Virus record (IMG/VR): IMGVR_UViG_2909246061_000008
Reading direction: 5' to 3' (one strand)
From: a virus
Lineage: Duplodnaviria > Heunggongvirae > Uroviricota > Caudoviricetes
DNA length: 12,432 bases
Shown here: positions 412-9,718 of the stretch, in pieces
Layout of the letters: every line of letters begins with the position of its first letter
How positions within the stretch are numbered: position 1 is the first letter of the stretch
Position numbers and translations under genes: made by a program
The notes under the pieces: model-generated
What the model was told of the DNA's origin: nothing
The model's input: the letters and a program-made list of their open reading frames with translations, nothing else
The model's database searches: none

Positions 412-670
412 ATGTCTGCACCTGCACTGCCTGATGTCAGAACAGTATTTTGATGAATTGCCAAGGTTACAATGGCACAAATACGGCACAGGAGGAAACG
501 TGGTGTATTTAAATATGGGGTAACTCTTTGATTTTAATGGTGCGATAATAGGAGTGAATATTACAAGCTAACACATTGATTTGTAATACATTATAATATT
601 CAAAAAATATAACTATACACATATCTATACACACTGCGTGTGTCGCTTGTTTTTCGCACAATTAAAAATA

Positions 671-1027: not shown

Positions 1028-2674
1028 TCAGGTTGTTGCAGGGTCGTCACATTTTGGCAGCCAGTCGCCGTAGCTTTCCTCTTTCAGCGTCAGGTTGGTC
1101 TGTATCCCCTGTTTGGTATGGCGCTTCTCGTAATTCAGTCCGTATTCCTTCAGCATCACCGGCAGCCCCAGCCCGAACATTTTCAGACTGAGTACATTCC
1201 GGTAGCCGTTTGCCTCCATGTAGGCCAGATAGGCGTGATAGAGGTATTTACGGTAATTACGCGGGATGATACTGGCGTTCCCCATATACATGCCGCTGGT
1301 CTGCGGCAGGGTTTCCAGATAGCCGATAAAATCAAACGTCGGGTCGGCATCCCGTTTGATGTTCAGCGCCTCGTCTGAGTTCTGCTGGGACTGAAGCAGT
1401 GACCGGGCGAGCATCGGGTCGCTGAACTTCTGCATCAGGTGACGCACGATGACCGCCAGCTCGCGGGTGATTTTGTCCTTAAGCTGCGGGTCGCGCTCCT
1501 GCGGGGCTATCTGTTCCGGGAAGTGAATAATCACCCGCCGGCGTGACACGCCGCCGCTGCGGTCGGTGAAGCGCATCGGGTTATTGTTCACGGCCAGAAT
1601 TACCGCCGGGATATGCGTGGAGTACGCATCCCGGTATTTCGGGTCCACGGACACCGCATCGCCGCCGGTGATGGCCTTGAGTCCGGCACCGTCGCCGCTC
1701 CATTTTTCCTGGTCCGGCAGGCGTATCAGTGAGAAGCCAGTTAACGCGGCACGTTCACGCGGGGATTCCAGCGTCTCGATGGTGGCCGACGTGGCGTTAT
1801 CCTCCCCGGCCAGCAGGGTGGCTATTTCGGCCATGATACTTTTGCCGCTGCCGCCGGGACCGGTCACCTCCAGAAAGAGCTGCCAGTCGTAGCGGTTTGC
1901 CAGCACCATAAACAGTGCGGCCAGAATCACGTCGCGTTTTTCCGCACGGCCACCGGCGGCACGGTCAAGCCAGCGCCAGAACGCGGGGGCGTGGGTTTCC
2001 AGCGTTTCCCCTTCCACCGGCGGGGTGAAATCCACATCGCACAGGGTGCGCATCCAGTGTGACGGACTGTGCGGGTGGAACGTGCCGTTCTGCGTGTCGA
2101 GCACGCCGTTACGAAAGCCAATCAGGCGGCGGGAGGGGGCTTCCTGCTGCGGAATAATCAGCTTCAGGGTGTCCACCACGGAGGCCACCTTCCCGGAGGA
2201 GAACGGCGCACGCAGCCGCTGAAACAGCCCGGCCACATCCCGGGCAAAGTCCTGTGGCGGCAGCACCTTCCAGACACCATTTTCATAGCGGGACAGAAGC
2301 TGGCCGTTGGCATCGACCGCGAGCGCCTCGCCGTAATGCTCATAGATACGCATGGCCTTTTCGCTGGTACTCATGGCGGAAAACTCCGCTTCGCTCATGG
2401 TGTCGAACGGGCTTTCAGCCGGTGGCCGGATGGCATCATAAATGGCCTTACGGGTGGCTTCCCCGCCGTACTGCGTGAAGGCATCATTCCAGTCACCGAA
2501 GACCGGCGGCAGGGCAACAACACCCTCACACGCATCTGCGGCTGCGGCGGCTTTTTTCTGGCCGTCACCGCTGAGGTCACGGTCTGCGGCAAGGACAATC
2601 TGACAGGCCGGATGCTTCTGCCGGGCAAGGCTGGCCAGAGAAAGGAGGTTCACGGAAGAAAGCGCCACCATCAC
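1028..2674 (-). CDS. P4 alpha-like primase/helicase, N-terminally truncated (TOPRIM remnant + SF3 helicase + C-terminal domain); possibly a pseudogene
   Basis: 548-aa ORF with a TOPRIM-like LAADRD motif near its start, Walker A GPGGSGKS, and an SF3-type motif C (ILAVNNNP). The reading frame stays open upstream to a stop at 2759-2761 (about 28 more codons) without reaching a primase N-terminal domain or a convincing start; the annotated start is GTG/ATG at 2674/2671. High G+C (~60%+). Adjacent to TGTTCACC iterons. Confidence 0.75.
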   Translation of the reverse strand: MMVALSSVNLLSLASLARQKHPACQIVLAADRDLSGDGQKKAAAAADACEGVVALPPVFGDWNDAFTQYGGEATRKAIYDAIRPPAESPFDTMSEAEFSAMSTSEKAMRIYEHYGEALAVDANGQLLSRYENGVWKVLPPQDFARDVAGLFQRLRAPFSSGKVASVVDTLKLIIPQQEAPSRRLIGFRNGVLDTQNGTFHPHSPSHWMRTLCDVDFTPPVEGETLETHAPAFWRWLDRAAGGRAEKRDVILAALFMVLANRYDWQLFLEVTGPGGSGKSIMAEIATLLAGEDNATSATIETLESPRERAALTGFSLIRLPDQEKWSGDGAGLKAITGGDAVSVDPKYRDAYSTHIPAVILAVNNNPMRFTDRSGGVSRRRVIIHFPEQIAPQERDPQLKDKITRELAVIVRHLMQKFSDPMLARSLLQSQQNSDEALNIKRDADPTFDFIGYLETLPQTSGMYMGNASIIPRNYRKYLYHAYLAYMEANGYRNVLSLKMFGLGLPVMLKEYGLNYEKRHTKQGIQTNLTLKEESYGDWLPKCDDPATT

Positions 2675-2895: not shown

Positions 2896-5800
2896 TTATT
2901 TACTGTTTATCAATTGCAATAATGGGATCTCAGCTACATCACTAGGAATATAGGGGTCATCTTCTTTTAAATTAACCCCAATACAATCAACATCATTTAA
3001 CCCAATTTCCCAAGCCCACCTAACATCTAACGTACTCATTTCTATCCCTAAACTATCTCTTTGTGGATGCTCAGGAACAATATTTTTTAACATCGCATCA
3101 CATCCAAGATAGAATTTTCCACAGGCCTGATACGCAGCAAGAAATCTTTCTAAATTGACGTTACTATCAGGAGTCATCGTATTAATTCTACTGATCATTG
3201 TCATTCTTTTAGTTAATGGCGTTGTCATCATATTTTCAGATATCAGCACTCTATAATGATTTGGGTTTTTAACTGAAATACCCTTGACAATACAAACCCG
3301 TAATCTGGCTTTACTATCTACCAAGCCTACTGATGATATAAGATCTTTAAAAATATCCTCACCTATATTGGGGTGTTTAAATAATAGATATAACCCTGGA
3401 TAACACGATTTTAATTGAGCGAAGCCTACTCCTTGCCAGCGTGTTCTATCCCATAGACGAGGCTTGATTAGACTTTGTATTGAATAATCTTTATGCGTTA
3501 TATTTTCGGAATTAAGTTCCTCTTCAGGCATTATTCCTTTACCAGGTGTTGGAACATTTACATCCTCGATCTCCAACACTTTCGGAAATTCACTATCCCA
3601 GGGTTTATCTCTTAAAAGAGGGTAAGTTTTCTTTTCAGCACTGGTGGAATAAATTTTCTTAATTTGTTGATCAATATCATTTCCAAGAACATTTTCAATA
3701 GCTTTGATACAGGCACCGAAACTAATTGCTCTGTCAAATGCAGCATCTTCGAATATCATTCTTTCAATGTATTCTGTATTTTTTGTAAAAAATAACTCAG
3801 GGAGAAGATCAAATACTATTTTCTTGAATTCATTAGTAATTTTTTGTTGAGCATCGACTCTAAATGAACTTGTTTCAAAACCATTGCAATTTATAGTAAG
3901 GTTTAGTTTTCCATTATTGCTATTTATTTCATGTGATAAGGAGAAGTCATCTTCATCATCTGCTATTACTTCAATAATTAAAAATGCTTCTTTCAGATGG
4001 ATGTTATCAATCGTACAAGTTGCAAAAGCACTCTCTAAAAGCGCTAAGATACTAGTTGAAAACTCTATAAATGGTGACCGATTCGGAAAGTTAATTTCTA
4101 TAGTGCATCCAAAAATAAAAGATGTATATATTCCTCGTTTATCATAGTTATCTTTTATGCCTTTACTATTGAATCCAGCATCAAAGTCACGTATTTCTTG
4201 CAAGAAATCATTATGATCTTTATCGGCAGTAACTTCATACTCATGTTCAAAATTTTCAATATAACCTAAAGCATATTTAAGACATCCAGATGATACAAAA
4301 AGACCTAATCTATCGAGTTCATCGGGAATATTACTCTGTCGATTTATTCCATTTAGGTCAGTGTTCAAAATGAGTTGACTTATGTAAAAATCAACTTGCT
4401 GATTTTCTTTATCGCCGAACGAACTTTCACTGATATTTTGGTTAATTATTAAAAACAGTTCATACCATAAAAGAGCATGTGCTAATTTCCCTAGTTTTAT
4501 TTCTGCCAGGCATAAACTATAATAAATCTCAGCCTGCTTTAATGATATCTCATCATACTTCCAGTAGTTATCTGTAATCAAAGAAGCGGATAGAAGCAAG
4601 CATGAACGTGAACTCCATAGCAACCCAATGGATTCGTAAGCATAAGCAATAGCTTTTAATGCTAATATAAATTTATCTCGTGATTCCTCTTTATAGAGTG
4701 GTATAAATGATTTTCCTAAATACTTGATTGCCTGATAAGGGTGACCATTTTGAATCCTCTTTATACCTCTTCGTAGATTTAATAATGCCCCTTTAACTTC
4801 ACCACCTCTAACAGCAGATTGCTCAGTCATATAGTCTAATAAATTTTCATATGCATCTACCTCGAAAAAAATGTCATCCAGTTCGTTCAAAAGTTGGAAG
4901 TTCTTCTCAAAGGAATAGCCTATTAAATTCCCACTATTTTTAAAAATTTCATGTAACTCTTCAAATACAACCGAAGCATCTTCTACATCTGAAAACGTTG
5001 TCAATTTATAAATAGCTTTGTGAGTTCTCGCTGTGAGTGCATTACTGGGACGTGATTCATCGTCAGCTATCTCATCTAGTTTAGCGAGCATGTTACGTTC
5101 AATATTCTCAATATCGATTGTAGATGTTGCGTTGTTAAGTCTAATATAACTTTTATGAACGGTTACTAAATTTAAAACTTTCTCCCATTTTGAGGAATTA
5201 GTTGATGATGCAATACTTTCATATGCAAATTGAAGATTTTCTTCAAAGAGATTAAAATCTTCCATCCAAAAATGAGACTTCCAGGCATATTGATAATACG
5301 CATCTAGCAATTGTTGATTAGTCCCGAATTTCTTTGATATTTTTATAGCTCTTTCAAATAGACCTTGTGTTTCAATTAGTGGTTTCTCAAGTTCAGCGCT
5401 TAACTCTGCAATTTCTAAAAAAATATCCACCTGTTCATATGAAATTTCAGCAGGGTTTATTTTCTCTCTAATATACTCGGTTAACTCTTCATATTTTTTA
5501 TGCTTTTTATAATCATTTTCTCCAAAAATAACTTCTCTTTTATATTGCGTTGGAACTGACAATGAATCAATGGCCAATTGCTCAAAATTATTTTTGTAAA
5601 TTTGATCTAATAGCCAATTAATATCTAATATACGAACATCTATTCCAGTTTTTGTTTTTAGTGTATCCTCAACCTCTGAACGAATATTGGACTTTGCAGA
5701 CTGGTTCGTTACGCAAAATACTTTAGCATACCCACGTTCTGTTTCTTTTATCTTAAGTACATCTTCATGGCATTTTTTCTTCCAGTCTTTACGTGTACTT

Positions 5801-6147
5801 ACCGCAAAGGCCCAGCGTTCTCTATTTGATGCTTCATTAACGCCTTCGAACCAAAGAAGCTTATTCTGTTCTGAAACAGGGAATGTTTGTGTGTCAGTTT
5901 TACCATCCCCCCCTGCTACAGGGCCAGTTTGTTCAAGGAGATTAGGGCAAATTATTTTTTCACATATTTTTTTTGCAAAATCTTCGAATTGTAGTTCTTG
6001 ATTTCTTGTATTTAGCGTAGAGAGGAAGTGTTCCAGTACAACTCTGTCTAAAGTACCAGTCTCTCTGATTGTTGAATCAGAAAATTTTTCAGGGCGACGG
6101 CGCCTTAGAAATTCTTTAGATGAAAATTTGGTTTTCTGTACATTCAT
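2896..6147 (-). CDS. Large hypothetical protein (1083 aa) encoded in a low-G+C cargo block; function unknown, candidate stand-alone defence/abortive-infection protein
   Basis: Single uninterrupted 3252-nt ORF. G+C is about 30-35% against ~55-65% in the flanks. A GAGGAG Shine-Dalgarno lies ~10 nt upstream of the ATG at 6147-6145, which overlaps the stop of the truncated stf (ATGA). Composition is Lys/Glu/Asn/Ile/Phe-rich, with helical repeat-like stretches in the middle. No Walker A (GxxxxGK[ST]) was found. The N-terminus carries GPVAGGDGKTD (aa 75-85), weakly reminiscent of an Mrr-type nuclease motif. Confidence 0.8.
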   Translation of the reverse strand: MNVQKTKFSSKEFLRRRRPEKFSDSTIRETGTLDRVVLEHFLSTLNTRNQELQFEDFAKKICEKIICPNLLEQTGPVAGGDGKTDTQTFPVSEQNKLLWFEGVNEASNRERWAFAVSTRKDWKKKCHEDVLKIKETERGYAKVFCVTNQSAKSNIRSEVEDTLKTKTGIDVRILDINWLLDQIYKNNFEQLAIDSLSVPTQYKREVIFGENDYKKHKKYEELTEYIREKINPAEISYEQVDIFLEIAELSAELEKPLIETQGLFERAIKISKKFGTNQQLLDAYYQYAWKSHFWMEDFNLFEENLQFAYESIASSTNSSKWEKVLNLVTVHKSYIRLNNATSTIDIENIERNMLAKLDEIADDESRPSNALTARTHKAIYKLTTFSDVEDASVVFEELHEIFKNSGNLIGYSFEKNFQLLNELDDIFFEVDAYENLLDYMTEQSAVRGGEVKGALLNLRRGIKRIQNGHPYQAIKYLGKSFIPLYKEESRDKFILALKAIAYAYESIGLLWSSRSCLLLSASLITDNYWKYDEISLKQAEIYYSLCLAEIKLGKLAHALLWYELFLIINQNISESSFGDKENQQVDFYISQLILNTDLNGINRQSNIPDELDRLGLFVSSGCLKYALGYIENFEHEYEVTADKDHNDFLQEIRDFDAGFNSKGIKDNYDKRGIYTSFIFGCTIEINFPNRSPFIEFSTSILALLESAFATCTIDNIHLKEAFLIIEVIADDEDDFSLSHEINSNNGKLNLTINCNGFETSSFRVDAQQKITNEFKKIVFDLLPELFFTKNTEYIERMIFEDAAFDRAISFGACIKAIENVLGNDIDQQIKKIYSTSAEKKTYPLLRDKPWDSEFPKVLEIEDVNVPTPGKGIMPEEELNSENITHKDYSIQSLIKPRLWDRTRWQGVGFAQLKSCYPGLYLLFKHPNIGEDIFKDLISSVGLVDSKARLRVCIVKGISVKNPNHYRVLISENMMTTPLTKRMTMISRINTMTPDSNVNLERFLAAYQACGKFYLGCDAMLKNIVPEHPQRDSLGIEMSTLDVRWAWEIGLNDVDCIGVNLKEDDPYIPSDVAEIPLLQLINSK

Positions 6148-7571
6148 GATTTTGACGCTCCTCTTGCTATCCCCTTTTTCGTCGTACTTGCATCCTCAAG
6201 CGCCACGGCGGATGCAATATCCTCTGCCCGTTTTGCCGCTGTCTCGGCGCGCGTTGCCGCGGATTCCGCCGTACTTTTGCTCTGTGCTGCCGCCGTCGCA
6301 CTGCCAGCTGCCTCTGTCGCCTTCGTGGATGCTGTCGTGGCGCTGCCCTTCGCTGCGGACGCTTGTCTGGTCGCCTCATCTTTTGAAGCAGACGCCGATG
6401 ATGCCGATGACGCCGCCGAACTGGCGGACGATGCCGCTGCCGTTTTTGAGGATTCTGCGCTGGTTTCCGACGCTTTCGCGTTCGTCTCGGATGTCTTCGC
6501 TGCGGAAGCAGACCTCGCTGCTGCGCTGGCCTGTTCAGTGGCTTCGCCAGCCTTCGTTGTGGCTGTTGAAGCAGACGATGCGGCACTTTCTGCCGATTTT
6601 CCGGCGGCGGTGGCACTGGCTGAGGCCTGCCCGGCACTTGTTGACGCGGCACTGGCAGACGACGCAGCCGCTGTTTTTGAGCCTGCCGCAGCCGAGGCGC
6701 TCTGTCCCGCTGCCGTTTCAGAAGACCTGGCGTTTGTCTCAGACGTCTTTGCCGCCTTCGCGGAATTGCCTGCCGCCGTTGCCGAGGAAGCGGCACTACT
6801 GGCGCTTGATGATGCGTTCGTTTCTGATGATTTCGCTGCCTCTTTTGAGGCCGCCGCATCCCGGGCTGAGGTGGCTGCTTCTGACGCCTTCGTGGTCGCG
6901 GCGGATGCAGAAGTGGCTGCTGATTGTTGTGACGCTGCCGCATTCGTTTCTGACGTTTTCGCCGCACCGGCACTGGTAGCTGCCGCGCTTTTTGAGGACT
7001 CTGCAGCAGCAGCACTTTTCGATGCTTCACTGGCCTTTGTTGATGCCGTTCCTGCGCTGGAAGTCGCTGACTGAGCCGACGACGCGGCCTGTCCGGCTGA
7101 CGTGCTGGCTGCGCGTGCTGAGCCTGCAGCATCAGTCGCATGGGTTGCCGCCTCACGGGCTGATGTGCTGGCATCACTGGCTGACTTCTTCGCGGCTGCC
7201 GTGTTCTGTGCCACCACGGACGCGTTACGCGCCACCTCTTCCACCATCAGCTCAAAACGGCGCAGTGCCTCCGGACGGGCATCATCCTCCGTCATGGCAC
7301 CGAGAAAATCATTCAGCGTACCGGGTCGGGAATCTTCATACACGGTAATGGTCCCGGCATGTGACGGCGGGAATCCTTCCACCAACAGACTGACGCTGTA
7401 CTGACCGTACTCAACGTCCATACTGTAACGCCCGGCTTCATCCGGATTTTCTGAGGCCAGCGTATTCACCACCACCGTGGTGCTGTTACGTTTTGCTTTC
7501 AGCTGGATTGTGCAGTTCTGTACCGGTTTTCCTGTGCCGTCTTTCAGTACACCTGAAATCTTTACTGCCAT
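6144..7571 (-). CDS. stf: Lambdoid side tail fibre protein Stf, N-terminal fragment, C-terminally truncated with 7 novel terminal codons
   Basis: N-terminus MAVKISGVLKDGTGKPVQNCTIQLKA... matches my recollection of lambda Stf, followed by an Ala/Ser/Thr-rich low-complexity region. Similarity ends after ...EDASTTKKGI; the tail ARGASKS is encoded by the junction sequence. ATG at 7571-7569 is preceded by a GGGGTGA Shine-Dalgarno; the ORF track's longer form starts at GTG 7577. Confidence 0.8.
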   Translation of the reverse strand: MAVKISGVLKDGTGKPVQNCTIQLKAKRNSTTVVVNTLASENPDEAGRYSMDVEYGQYSVSLLVEGFPPSHAGTITVYEDSRPGTLNDFLGAMTEDDARPEALRRFELMVEEVARNASVVAQNTAAAKKSASDASTSAREAATHATDAAGSARAASTSAGQAASSAQSATSSAGTASTKASEASKSAAAAESSKSAAATSAGAAKTSETNAAASQQSAATSASAATTKASEAATSARDAAASKEAAKSSETNASSSASSAASSATAAGNSAKAAKTSETNARSSETAAGQSASAAAGSKTAAASSASAASTSAGQASASATAAGKSAESAASSASTATTKAGEATEQASAAARSASAAKTSETNAKASETSAESSKTAAASSASSAASSASSASASKDEATRQASAAKGSATTASTKATEAAGSATAAAQSKSTAESAATRAETAAKRAEDIASAVALEDASTTKKGIARGASKS

Positions 7572-7582
7572 ATTCACCCCAC

Positions 7583-7609
7583 AAAAAAGCCCGCCTGAAC
7601 CGGCGGGCT
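7583..7609 (-). terminator. Rho-independent terminator between lom and stf
   Basis: 8-bp GC-rich stem (AGCCCGCC 7588-7595 with GGCGGGCT 7602-7609) around a 6-nt loop. On the minus strand it is followed by a T6 run (plus-strand A-run 7583-7588). Confidence 0.55.
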
Positions 7610-8304: not shown

Positions 8305-8697
8305 TCAACGAATACTGATGCCGGAAGCGACTTTTTTGGTCACAATCACCGTACAGTCGGTGATATTACCTGCCCACTGATTGCCTTTATGGAAAACCTT
8401 AAACTCCAGAGTGACGCTTCCCCTGCCACTCGGCATATCAATAATCGCACTGTAGCTACCGGGAAGACGGGCTGATAATTCATTTTCGCCTGCATCACGC
8501 CCGGCAATGCGCACCTGATACCAGCCCTCATTCACTTTCTGGCGAAACGACGGAAGCTGCGTGGCCAGCGCCCGGATGGCTTCGGCCCCCGTTTTCACAC
8601 GAAGGTCGATGCGGTGGCCAAATCGTTGTAAATCCCCGTAAAGGCAGATGCGTGCCATGCCCGGTGACGCCAGAGGGAGTGTGTGCGTCGCTGCCAT
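8305..8697 (-). CDS. Lambdoid tail assembly protein I, N-terminal ~80 aa joined to an unrelated ~50-aa C-terminus; J is absent
   Basis: The first ~80 residues (MAATHTLPLASPGMARICLYGDLQRFG...WYQVRIAGRD) match my recollection of lambda gpI, then the sequence diverges (AGENELSARLPGSY...VASGISIR). The ORF is 130 aa against ~223 expected. No J-sized ORF lies between it and lom. Confidence 0.65.
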   Translation of the reverse strand: MAATHTLPLASPGMARICLYGDLQRFGHRIDLRVKTGAEAIRALATQLPSFRQKVNEGWYQVRIAGRDAGENELSARLPGSYSAIIDMPSGRGSVTLEFKVFHKGNQWAGNITDCTVIVTKKVASGISIR

Positions 8698-9347
8698 TTG
8701 TCGGTATACCTCTCTCGTTTGCTCAGTTGTTCAGGAATATGGTGCAACAGCTCGCCGTCGCCGCAGTAAATGGCGGCATGATTCGGCACCGATGAACCAA
8801 AACAGCACAGCAGCACATCGCCCGGTTGTGCTGATGACAACGGCACCTGATACAGCCCTGTGGCCTCCAGATTATCCAGATAGAGATTCTGACCGTGACG
8901 CCACCAGTCATCCCCGCGATGAAAATCCGGCATCTCAATTCCCGCCAGATGGTAAGCATCCCGGAACAGCGTGTAACAGTCCGTCACCCCGTGCTCAAAG
9001 CGCCGCCCGGTGAGATGCGGCACACAGCGGAATTTATGAATCGCCCCCCGGCAGACCAGCCACCACGGCAAATCACTCTGCACCTGCAGCCGCCGGTCGG
9101 TCTCACTCAGCCAGGGCAGACCACCGGGGTGGCTGTGGACCAGCGCCACAATCTCACCCTGCATCTCTGCCCGCAGCCAGTCCTCCGGCGACATCCGGAA
9201 ATACTCCTCCGGCTCACCGGAGATATTCACGCAGGGAAAATATCTTTCCCCCTCCGGTGTTCTCACCACGAAGCCGCACGACTCCGCTGGCGCACATCGC
9301 CGGGCGTGCGCCAGAATCGCTGATTCTGTCTCTGTCATGGGATTCAC
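8595..9347 (-). CDS. Lambdoid tail assembly protein K (JAB/MPN + NlpC/P60 domains)
   Basis: HSHPGG (JAB-like) motif and a Cys/His pair (..DCYTLF.., ..PNHAAIY..) typical of NlpC/P60. Near-lambda-like by recollection. GTG at 9347 overlaps the L stop (GTGA); an alternative ATG lies at 9338. The 3' end overlaps the I start by ~100 nt, as in lambda. Confidence 0.85.
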   Translation of the reverse strand: MNPMTETESAILAHARRCAPAESCGFVVRTPEGERYFPCVNISGEPEEYFRMSPEDWLRAEMQGEIVALVHSHPGGLPWLSETDRRLQVQSDLPWWLVCRGAIHKFRCVPHLTGRRFEHGVTDCYTLFRDAYHLAGIEMPDFHRGDDWWRHGQNLYLDNLEATGLYQVPLSSAQPGDVLLCCFGSSVPNHAAIYCGDGELLHHIPEQLSKRERYTDKWQRRTHSLWRHRAWHASAFTGIYNDLATASTFV

Positions 9348-9718
9348 TGCGAAAGTTTGTTAATGGAAAGGAAGCCGCCAAAGTTGCCGACGTTATTGCG
9401 AAACTTACAGCCGCTCAGGCATTTGCTGCATTTATCCTTCGTGATATCGGACGTCGGCTGATCATATTCATCCGCGACCGCCGGACCGTGATAACCGCAC
9501 TCATCACCGCGATAGGTCCAGGTGCAGGTGTTGGCCAGCATGATACGTCCCGGAAAAACGGCACCGTCCGTTTCCGTCGGCGTGGACAGTACAAAAGAGG
9601 CACTCACCGCGCTCAGTTCGCTGCACTGCTCGATGCGCCAGCGGCTGATCACCTCCTGCTCCGGATCGGCGTCACTGTTTCCGTTGACGAAGTTCACCGC
9701 ATCCAGATACCGTCCTTT
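9344..9718 (-). pseudogene. Lambdoid minor tail protein L, 5'-truncated (C-terminal ~125 codons only)
   Basis: Translation (K)GRYLDAVNFVNGNSDADPEQEVISRWRIEQ...FGGFLSINKLSQ matches the C-terminal part of lambda L as I recall it. An in-frame stop at 9719-9721 cuts off the N-terminal half, and the similarity ends exactly where the inverted repeat begins. Confidence 0.7.

Follow-up and report, generated by a model that had tools for sequence, protein, structure and literature searches.

A heptad-repeat region in a truncated Escherichia coli stf gene corresponds to the common 48-heptad rod of lambda-type side tail fibers

Introduction

The side tail fiber protein of bacteriophage lambda, gpStf, is composed of a collar domain (residues 1 to 91), a flexible linker (92 to 101), a proximal trimeric coiled coil (102 to 393), and a hinge (394 to 422), followed by the distal domains (PMC12617516). 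This domain map was obtained in 2025 for Ur-lambda by combining cryo-electron microscopy (cryo-EM) and cryo-electron tomography (cryo-ET) with AlphaFold3 (AF3) modeling (PMC12617516). Residues 1 to 94 of gpStfN were resolved by cryo-EM; the collar domain is a beta-sandwich that binds the tail tube/tip, and the rod, made of three chains, keeps the distal, receptor-binding part at a distance from the collar that the N-terminal domains form at the tail tip (PMC12617516). Lambda Stf was already among the long coiled-coil proteins listed in a 2005 survey (PMC1322226).

Here we describe an stf gene in a 12,432-nucleotide (nt) stretch of DNA, IMG/VR record IMGVR_UViG_2909246061_000008, which we refer to as the window. 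The window is E. coli chromosome adjoining paoABCD, a patchwork of degraded mobile elements. The initial annotation had singled out positions 6300 to 7150, within an Stf fragment, as an Ala/Ser/Thr-rich repeat region that was possibly expanded. We conclude, with a probability of about 0.93, that this region is the proximal coiled-coil rod of a lambda-type Stf in its common 48-heptad allele, that its length is an allelic polymorphism, that the long open reading frames (ORFs) in the other frames are compositional, and that the gene is dead.

Results

Heptad periodicity. The Stf fragment does contain a long run of degenerate Ala/Ser/Thr repeats, as initially described, and both a heptad autocorrelation and the recurring motifs were found in it. 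The region between amino acids (aa) 121 and 455 is 38% Ala, 24.5% Ser, and 12% Thr and is made up of 48 uninterrupted heptads of the form x-[T/S]-S-A-x-x-A, with no phase break over 335 residues. Self-identity was 0.39 to 0.47 at all lags that are multiples of 7, compared to 0.23 in composition-preserving shuffles (z = 7.7 to 10.5), and was at background or lower at all other lags. Ala fills position 7 of the heptad in 47 of 47 cases; Ser is found at position 3 in 37 of 48, and Ala at position 4 in 34 of 48, the remainder there being mostly Lys or Glu. The core positions are small, with Ala at d in 47/47 heptads and mostly Ala at a, and there are few bulky hydrophobic residues. The motif AAKTSETNA recurs at aa 203, 273, and 357, with AAKSSETNA at aa 245; there is no Pro in aa 102 to 468 and no Gly-X-Y pattern. 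The periodic region thus lies where the repeats had been placed but is slightly wider (Table 1).

The same region had been described as GC-rich repetitive DNA. It is GC rich (62.6%), but the repetition is a heptad at the protein level and not a tandem repetition of the DNA. Tandem Repeats Finder (TRF) reported just two trivial arrays, with scores of 39 to 43; the best in-register identity over 63 nt was no more than 67%, and the direct-repeat families had spacings that were mostly multiples of 21 nt and identities of 62 to 85%. A 105-aa super-repeat was considered and rejected, since the identity at lag 105 (0.404) was no higher than that at other multiples of 7.

Assignment to Stf. The ORF of the stf fragment spans 6144..7577 on the minus strand, with the ATG at 7571 as the true start codon, which gives 475 aa. 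The Pfam family PF08400 (phage_tail_N) matches aa 1 to 134 (E = 1.2e-71) over profile positions 1 to 134 of 134, and aa 1 to 94 match the 94-aa chain named "Tail fiber protein" in PDB entries 9e7m/9mgh (E = 2.5e-51). At E <= 0.01, PF08400 was the sole Pfam match on the fragment, with neither Phage_fiber_2 nor another repeat family detected, and an NCBIfam search of the fragment returned no match. The order of genes on the minus strand, L', K, I'-'J, lom, and stf, agrees with the tail modules of lambda and EC26. The window Stf is a member of the lambda-type side tail fibers by descent, but it is a pseudogene.

The rod. We identify the Ala/Ser/Thr-rich region as the side tail fiber shaft because it aligns residue for residue with the proximal coiled coil of lambda. 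It also has the properties of a helical coiled coil: unbroken heptads, small residues at a and d, and a helix-compatible sequence. A single-sequence AlphaFold2 (AF2) model placed a helix at aa 98 to 472, with low confidence (predicted local distance difference test score [pLDDT], 65), and the helix probably extends from about aa 98 to 102 to the truncation at aa 468 (nt 6168..7268). By analogy to the Ur-lambda study (PMC12617516), the window rod would contain three parallel chains. The rod is closed by KRAEDIASAVALED, which begins at aa 447 in the window and at aa 342 in lambda orf401. The coiled-coil shaft of Stf is an already known feature, present here in its commonest allelic length.

Rod length. 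We measured rod length as the spacing between two anchors, EEVARNA at the rod start and KRAEDIA at the rod end. A counter of runs with Ala at every seventh residue was dropped in favor of this spacing, since such runs are broken by point substitutions. In a tblastn search of the fragment against the phage collection, the filter masked the rod and aa 1 to 123 alone aligned, and the loci were aligned directly instead; a search for homologues of the N-terminal domain yielded only partial proteins, none longer than 214 aa and all unusable for heptad counts. The anchors are 231 aa apart in lambda orf401 (33 heptads) and 336 aa apart in the window Stf (48 heptads). The initial annotation had the conserved block closer to the N terminus in lambda than here, where it was put at around aa 450, and this was accurate, with KRAEDIA found at aa 342 in lambda and at aa 447 in the window. 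The difference in length between the two rods is a single block of 105 aa, which StfR-type alleles have and lambda Stf lacks (Table 1); at an assumed rise of 1.48 A per residue, this block would add about 15.5 nm to the rod.

To place these lengths among relatives, 135 distinct Stf proteins were collected from IMG/VR loci and reference records, 107 of them with both anchors. The spacing was 336 aa in 88/107 and 231 aa in 14/107, with 116, 224, 333, 340, and 441 aa seen once each; the surveyed loci were the best matches to two N-terminal queries, which biases these class frequencies. Stf classes that lack the KRAEDIA anchor have 30 to 38 heptads. Because of the bias in the sample, we counted genomes as well. 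Of 5426 complete E. coli genomes, 3659 had the 315-nt block (at least 80% coverage) and 97 had the lambda short junction (full match to a 131-nt probe), several of these 97 being lambda or DE3 lysogens. Lambda is a minority short form, and rod length is an allelic polymorphism, with no expansion in the window copy.

Alternative reading frames. The region had also been reported to yield long ORFs in at least three other frames, and three were found, of 336, 283, and 265 aa (Table 1). There are no codons with T at position 2 in the heptad region, and sense frame +1 is therefore free of stops, which accounts for the 336-aa ORF; shuffling the codons likewise gave 0 stops in this frame. The 6277..7074 frame has 1 stop, compared to 1.6 to 1.8 expected from codon shuffles. 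The 6128..6979 frame also has 1 stop, compared to about 8 expected (7.7 to 8.2), and 0/500 shuffles, whether of codons or of heptad columns, were as open. T/A codon junctions are 3.5-fold underrepresented in the heptad region (4 observed and 14.2 expected), as are TA dinucleotides overall (4 observed and 29 expected), and we attribute the stop deficit of the 6128..6979 frame to this avoidance of T/A junctions together with TA depletion. The codon composition of the heptads (GCN, TCN, and ACN codons, no T at position 2, and few TA dinucleotides) gives rise to both the GC richness and the openness of the alternative frames.

The underrepresentation of T/A codon junctions in the heptad region exceeds that in the window's other genes (observed/expected, 0.64 to 1.0). 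General TpA avoidance, mRNA stability, and mutation bias are possible causes of the depletion.

Truncation of stf. Homology to Stf covers codons 1 to 468; in the last seven codons, 469 to 475 (ARGASKS), the frame reads through into the 5' leader of the following gene. Of the parts by which an intact fiber would be recognized, the window has no hinge, no distal domain, no C-terminal receptor-binding tip, and no tfa; in PSS-10, PGAP annotates the gene as [quoted passage not shown] At the junction, stf codon 468 meets the sequence that begins 22 nt before the ATG of a 1083-aa ORF (ORF1083), and the TGA stop of the stf fragment overlaps this start (ATGA). EC26 retains the ancestral order, with stf (1092 aa) followed by tfa, an integrase remnant, the 1083-aa gene, and the integrase of a P4-like element. 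JSMCR1 already has an stf that is cut short at about codon 513, and it lacks tfa. The sequence of the window is that of JSMCR1 less two clean deletions, one of 746 bp between GATAG direct repeats and one of 324 bp in L; the 746-bp deletion shows a 5-bp overlap at 6167 to 6171 and flanks that are 100% identical. The uninterrupted stf/ORF1083 junction was found in only 2/5426 genomes. The stf fragment thus arose recently, as the prophage eroded step by step, and no fiber can be made from it. Besides the loss of most of J, this prophage shows stf cut at codon 468 by the 746-bp microhomology deletion.

At 6144..6171, the ribosome-binding site of ORF1083 (AGGAG) and its 22-nt leader are fused in frame to stf codon 468, and the native upstream region of ORF1083 is gone. 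A scan of the minus strand within the stf fragment for sigma-70-like consensus promoters found none.

Table 1. Coordinates of the features in the window
Feature	Coordinates	Strand	Evidence or remark
Truncated stf pseudogene, 475 codons plus TGA stop	6144..7571	minus	ORF list, PGAP, alignments to PhiR26_1 Stf and EC26
Stf N-terminal collar domain, aa 1-94	7290..7571	minus	Pfam PF08400, PDB 9e7m/9mgh
48 uninterrupted heptads, aa 121-455	6207..7211	minus	Register table, autocorrelation
105-aa (15-heptad) block, aa 303-407	6351..6665	minus	MAFFT alignment of window, lambda, L052, L082
Deletion junction, 5-bp microhomology GATAG	6167..6171	minus	Three-way alignment of window, PhiR26_1 stf, EC26
336-aa ORF, sense frame +1	6167..7177	minus	Compositional by-product
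283-aa antisense ORF	6128..6979	plus	Compositional by-product
265-aa antisense ORF	6277..7074	plus	Compositional by-product
P4-family primase/helicase without N terminus	1028..2674	minus	Toprim_3, D5_N, DUF5906, Pox_D5
1083-aa ORF, hypothetical protein WP_039268304.1, not part of Stf	2896..6147	minus	ATG overlaps stf-fragment stop
Terminator-like hairpin, strong (8-bp stem, 7 G-C pairs, T-run)	7588..7609	minus	Between lom and stf
Chimeric I'-'J ORF, N terminus of tail assembly protein I plus last ~55 residues of J	8305..8697	minus	Pfam Lambda_tail_I and Ig_GpJ_C
Minor tail protein L, C-terminal 117 aa left	9344..9707	minus	324-bp deletion relative to JSMCR1

The surrounding locus. Five complete genomes match the window end to end. 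In the PSS-10 annotation, the minus strand carries, in order, a P4-family primase without its N terminus, a 1083-aa hypothetical protein, the stf fragment, lom, J/I fragments, K, and a truncated L, and the plus strand after the truncated L carries yfdPQRST-like genes; these assignments were confirmed by Pfam for the genes of the window. The I/J fusion arose from a 3.8-kb deletion relative to EC26, by which most of J was lost. The truncated L abuts the block of yfdP/Q/R/S/T-like (CPS-53-type) genes, which lies on the opposite strand, and the int-to-ash part of the P4-like element of EC26 is absent from the window. Across 12.4 kb, the sole indel between the window and PSS-10 is a 12-nt stretch, CTATACACATAT, at 613..624 in an AT-rich spacer, which is present in the window and absent from PSS-10. 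Its position, outside stf, rules out this difference as a change in stf. Rfam and tRNA scans of the window returned no matches.

The adjoining ORF1083 has a GC content of 32 to 36%, compared to 54 to 62% across the stf fragment. Its sequence had no match in Pfam, PADLOC, NCBIfam, PHROGs, or PDB in sequence and profile searches, and its homologues in the Gammaproteobacteria number at least 760 and vary little in length. The neighbors of these homologues differ by genome, with AbiH and a DUF87 ATPase among them in Vibrio parahaemolyticus. An AF2 model (pLDDT, 84; predicted template modeling score, 0.71) consists of an N-terminal alpha/beta domain, a solenoid resembling tetratricopeptide repeats (TPR), and C-terminal alpha/beta domains, and a Foldseek comparison of the model to the PDB retrieved TPR proteins only. 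All leads on ORF1083 came from fold comparison, and the protein is a predicted nuclease/TPR protein. ORF1083 is a plausible candidate for a single-gene defense system, unrelated to the repeat.

Discussion

We interpret the Ala/Ser/Thr-rich region as a coiled-coil rod, but a different structure could be envisaged for it, either an unstructured low-complexity linker or a nonhelical fibrous fold of the collagen-like or beta-helical kind. The extreme composition, the masking of the region by BLAST as low complexity, and the lack of a match to any Pfam repeat family would suit such a structure. However, a strict 7-residue period that is maintained over 335 residues without a phase break, the absence of both Pro and a Gly-X-Y pattern, and the helix in the AF2 model all argue for a coiled coil, and the homologous segment of lambda is a rigid rod in cryo-ET that was modeled as a trimeric coiled coil (PMC12617516). 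We regard a linker or a nonhelical fold as very unlikely. The chance that one of the alternative-frame ORFs, for example, the antisense 6128..6979 ORF, is a real overlapping gene appears even slighter. The openness of that frame, with 1 stop rather than about 8 and a length reached in 0/500 shuffles, would be consistent with coding, but the deficit is covered by the depletion of T/A junctions and TA dinucleotides, the translation is of low complexity, and no such gene is annotated in the database records examined. An overlapping gene would be expected to suppress synonymous divergence (dS), and dS in the heptads was at least as high as that in the N-terminal domain: 0.40 versus 0.41 in the comparison with lambda and 0.15 versus 0.08 for PhiR26_1 and EC26. 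The ratio of nonsynonymous to synonymous divergence (dN/dS) is about 0.13 to 0.24, and dS in the heptads is normal; purifying selection acts on the sense frame, with no indication of dual coding. Several points nevertheless weigh against our interpretation. The evidence for a trimer comes from the work on lambda, in which the rod is an AF3 model placed in cryo-ET density and not a structure at atomic resolution; the AF2 monomer model is of low confidence; the number of stops in one antisense frame is below that predicted from codon shuffles, which we ascribe to TpA avoidance and not to coding; and the protein survey was drawn from a biased sample.

The repeat expansion that was initially proposed holds in the sense that the window rod is 105 aa longer than that of lambda, but not as an event at this locus. 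A recent expansion of the DNA in the window copy, by slippage or unequal crossing-over, would have lengthened the rod relative to its ancestor, and repeat-mediated length events do happen in the Stf family. One surveyed locus, L052 (IMG/VR 2660237933_000006), has an exact tandem duplication of 105 aa, giving 63 heptads; L127 has lost 112 aa between K[ST]SETNA motifs, L099 has lost 220 aa, and L024 and L074 have a 4-aa insertion and a 3-aa deletion, respectively, both of which shift the heptad phase. These are rare length variants produced by recombination within the heptads, and no event of these types was seen in the window. In contrast, the layout of the window is identical in K-12 StfR, PhiR26_1, and 88 of the 107 surveyed proteins, and the extra block is found in most of the complete genomes counted above. 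The DNA of this block is no more than 53% identical to any other in-register block of the gene and is therefore not a recent duplicate of its neighbors; TRF detected no relevant array, and the window shows neither high-identity adjacent copies nor a copy number unlike that of close relatives, the marks of a tandem expansion. We consider recent expansion extremely improbable, and for the window copy it is refuted by the StfR spacing, which is identical. The comparison of repeat numbers that the initial annotation had suggested as a check thus gives the same number as in StfR-type reference genes and a different one, 48 as opposed to 33, from that in lambda. For the 105-aa indel, parsimony favors a deletion in the lambda lineage, although this polarity is not proven.

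The forms with 33, 48, and 63 heptads differ by the same 105-aa unit (15 heptads, about 15.5 nm) and share the same boundary at aa 303. It is conceivable, but in our view unlikely, that they represent preferred discrete classes of rod length; if they do, the classes could reflect selection for a fixed reach or superhelical phase, for example, to suit the depth of the host's surface layer, and not free repeat drift. Singletons with 32 heptads (a 16-heptad deletion), the 220-aa deletion, the +4 and -3 indels, and the other classes with 30 to 38 heptads count against discrete classes and weaken a strict quantization in 15-heptad steps.

The textbook reference is lambda, whose short rod is the minority form, and being "longer than lambda" should therefore not be taken as a sign of expansion. 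The GC-rich sequence and the spurious long ORFs both have their explanation in the strict Ala-core heptad, and such ORFs should be disregarded by gene callers and first-pass readers. The importance of the region itself is small, given that it is the known shaft of the lambda family in a common StfR-type allele; the adjacent ORF1083 is the more interesting object in the window. The locus as a whole offers a clean example of stepwise prophage decay via microhomology deletions.

Among described systems, StfR of the Rac prophage of K-12 (b1372, 1120 aa) has the N-terminal domain and 48 heptads as in the window, with EEVARNA at aa 111 and KRAEDIA at aa 447, and is 97.6% identical to the window Stf over aa 1 to 468 without gaps. 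StfR runs on for ~650 aa, through the hinge, distal domains, and receptor-binding tip, and is followed by tfaR, whereas the window Stf stops at aa 468 and lacks tfa. Stf of the sequenced phage PhiR26_1 (XSB42120.1, annotated as 1025 aa) is nearly identical to the window protein through TTKKGI (aa 468), again with 48 heptads, but it is full length, with the usual distal part and tfa downstream, while the window copy is truncated. Lambda (Ur-lambda gpStf, lambda PaPa orf401) shares with the window the collar domain, the heptad motif, and the KRAEDIASAVALED rod end; it differs in having 33 heptads between the anchors and no equivalent of window aa 303 to 407. With long alpha-helical coiled coils that have Ala cores in general, the window region shares the heptad period, Ala at both core positions, a low number of bulky hydrophobic residues, and the absence of Pro.
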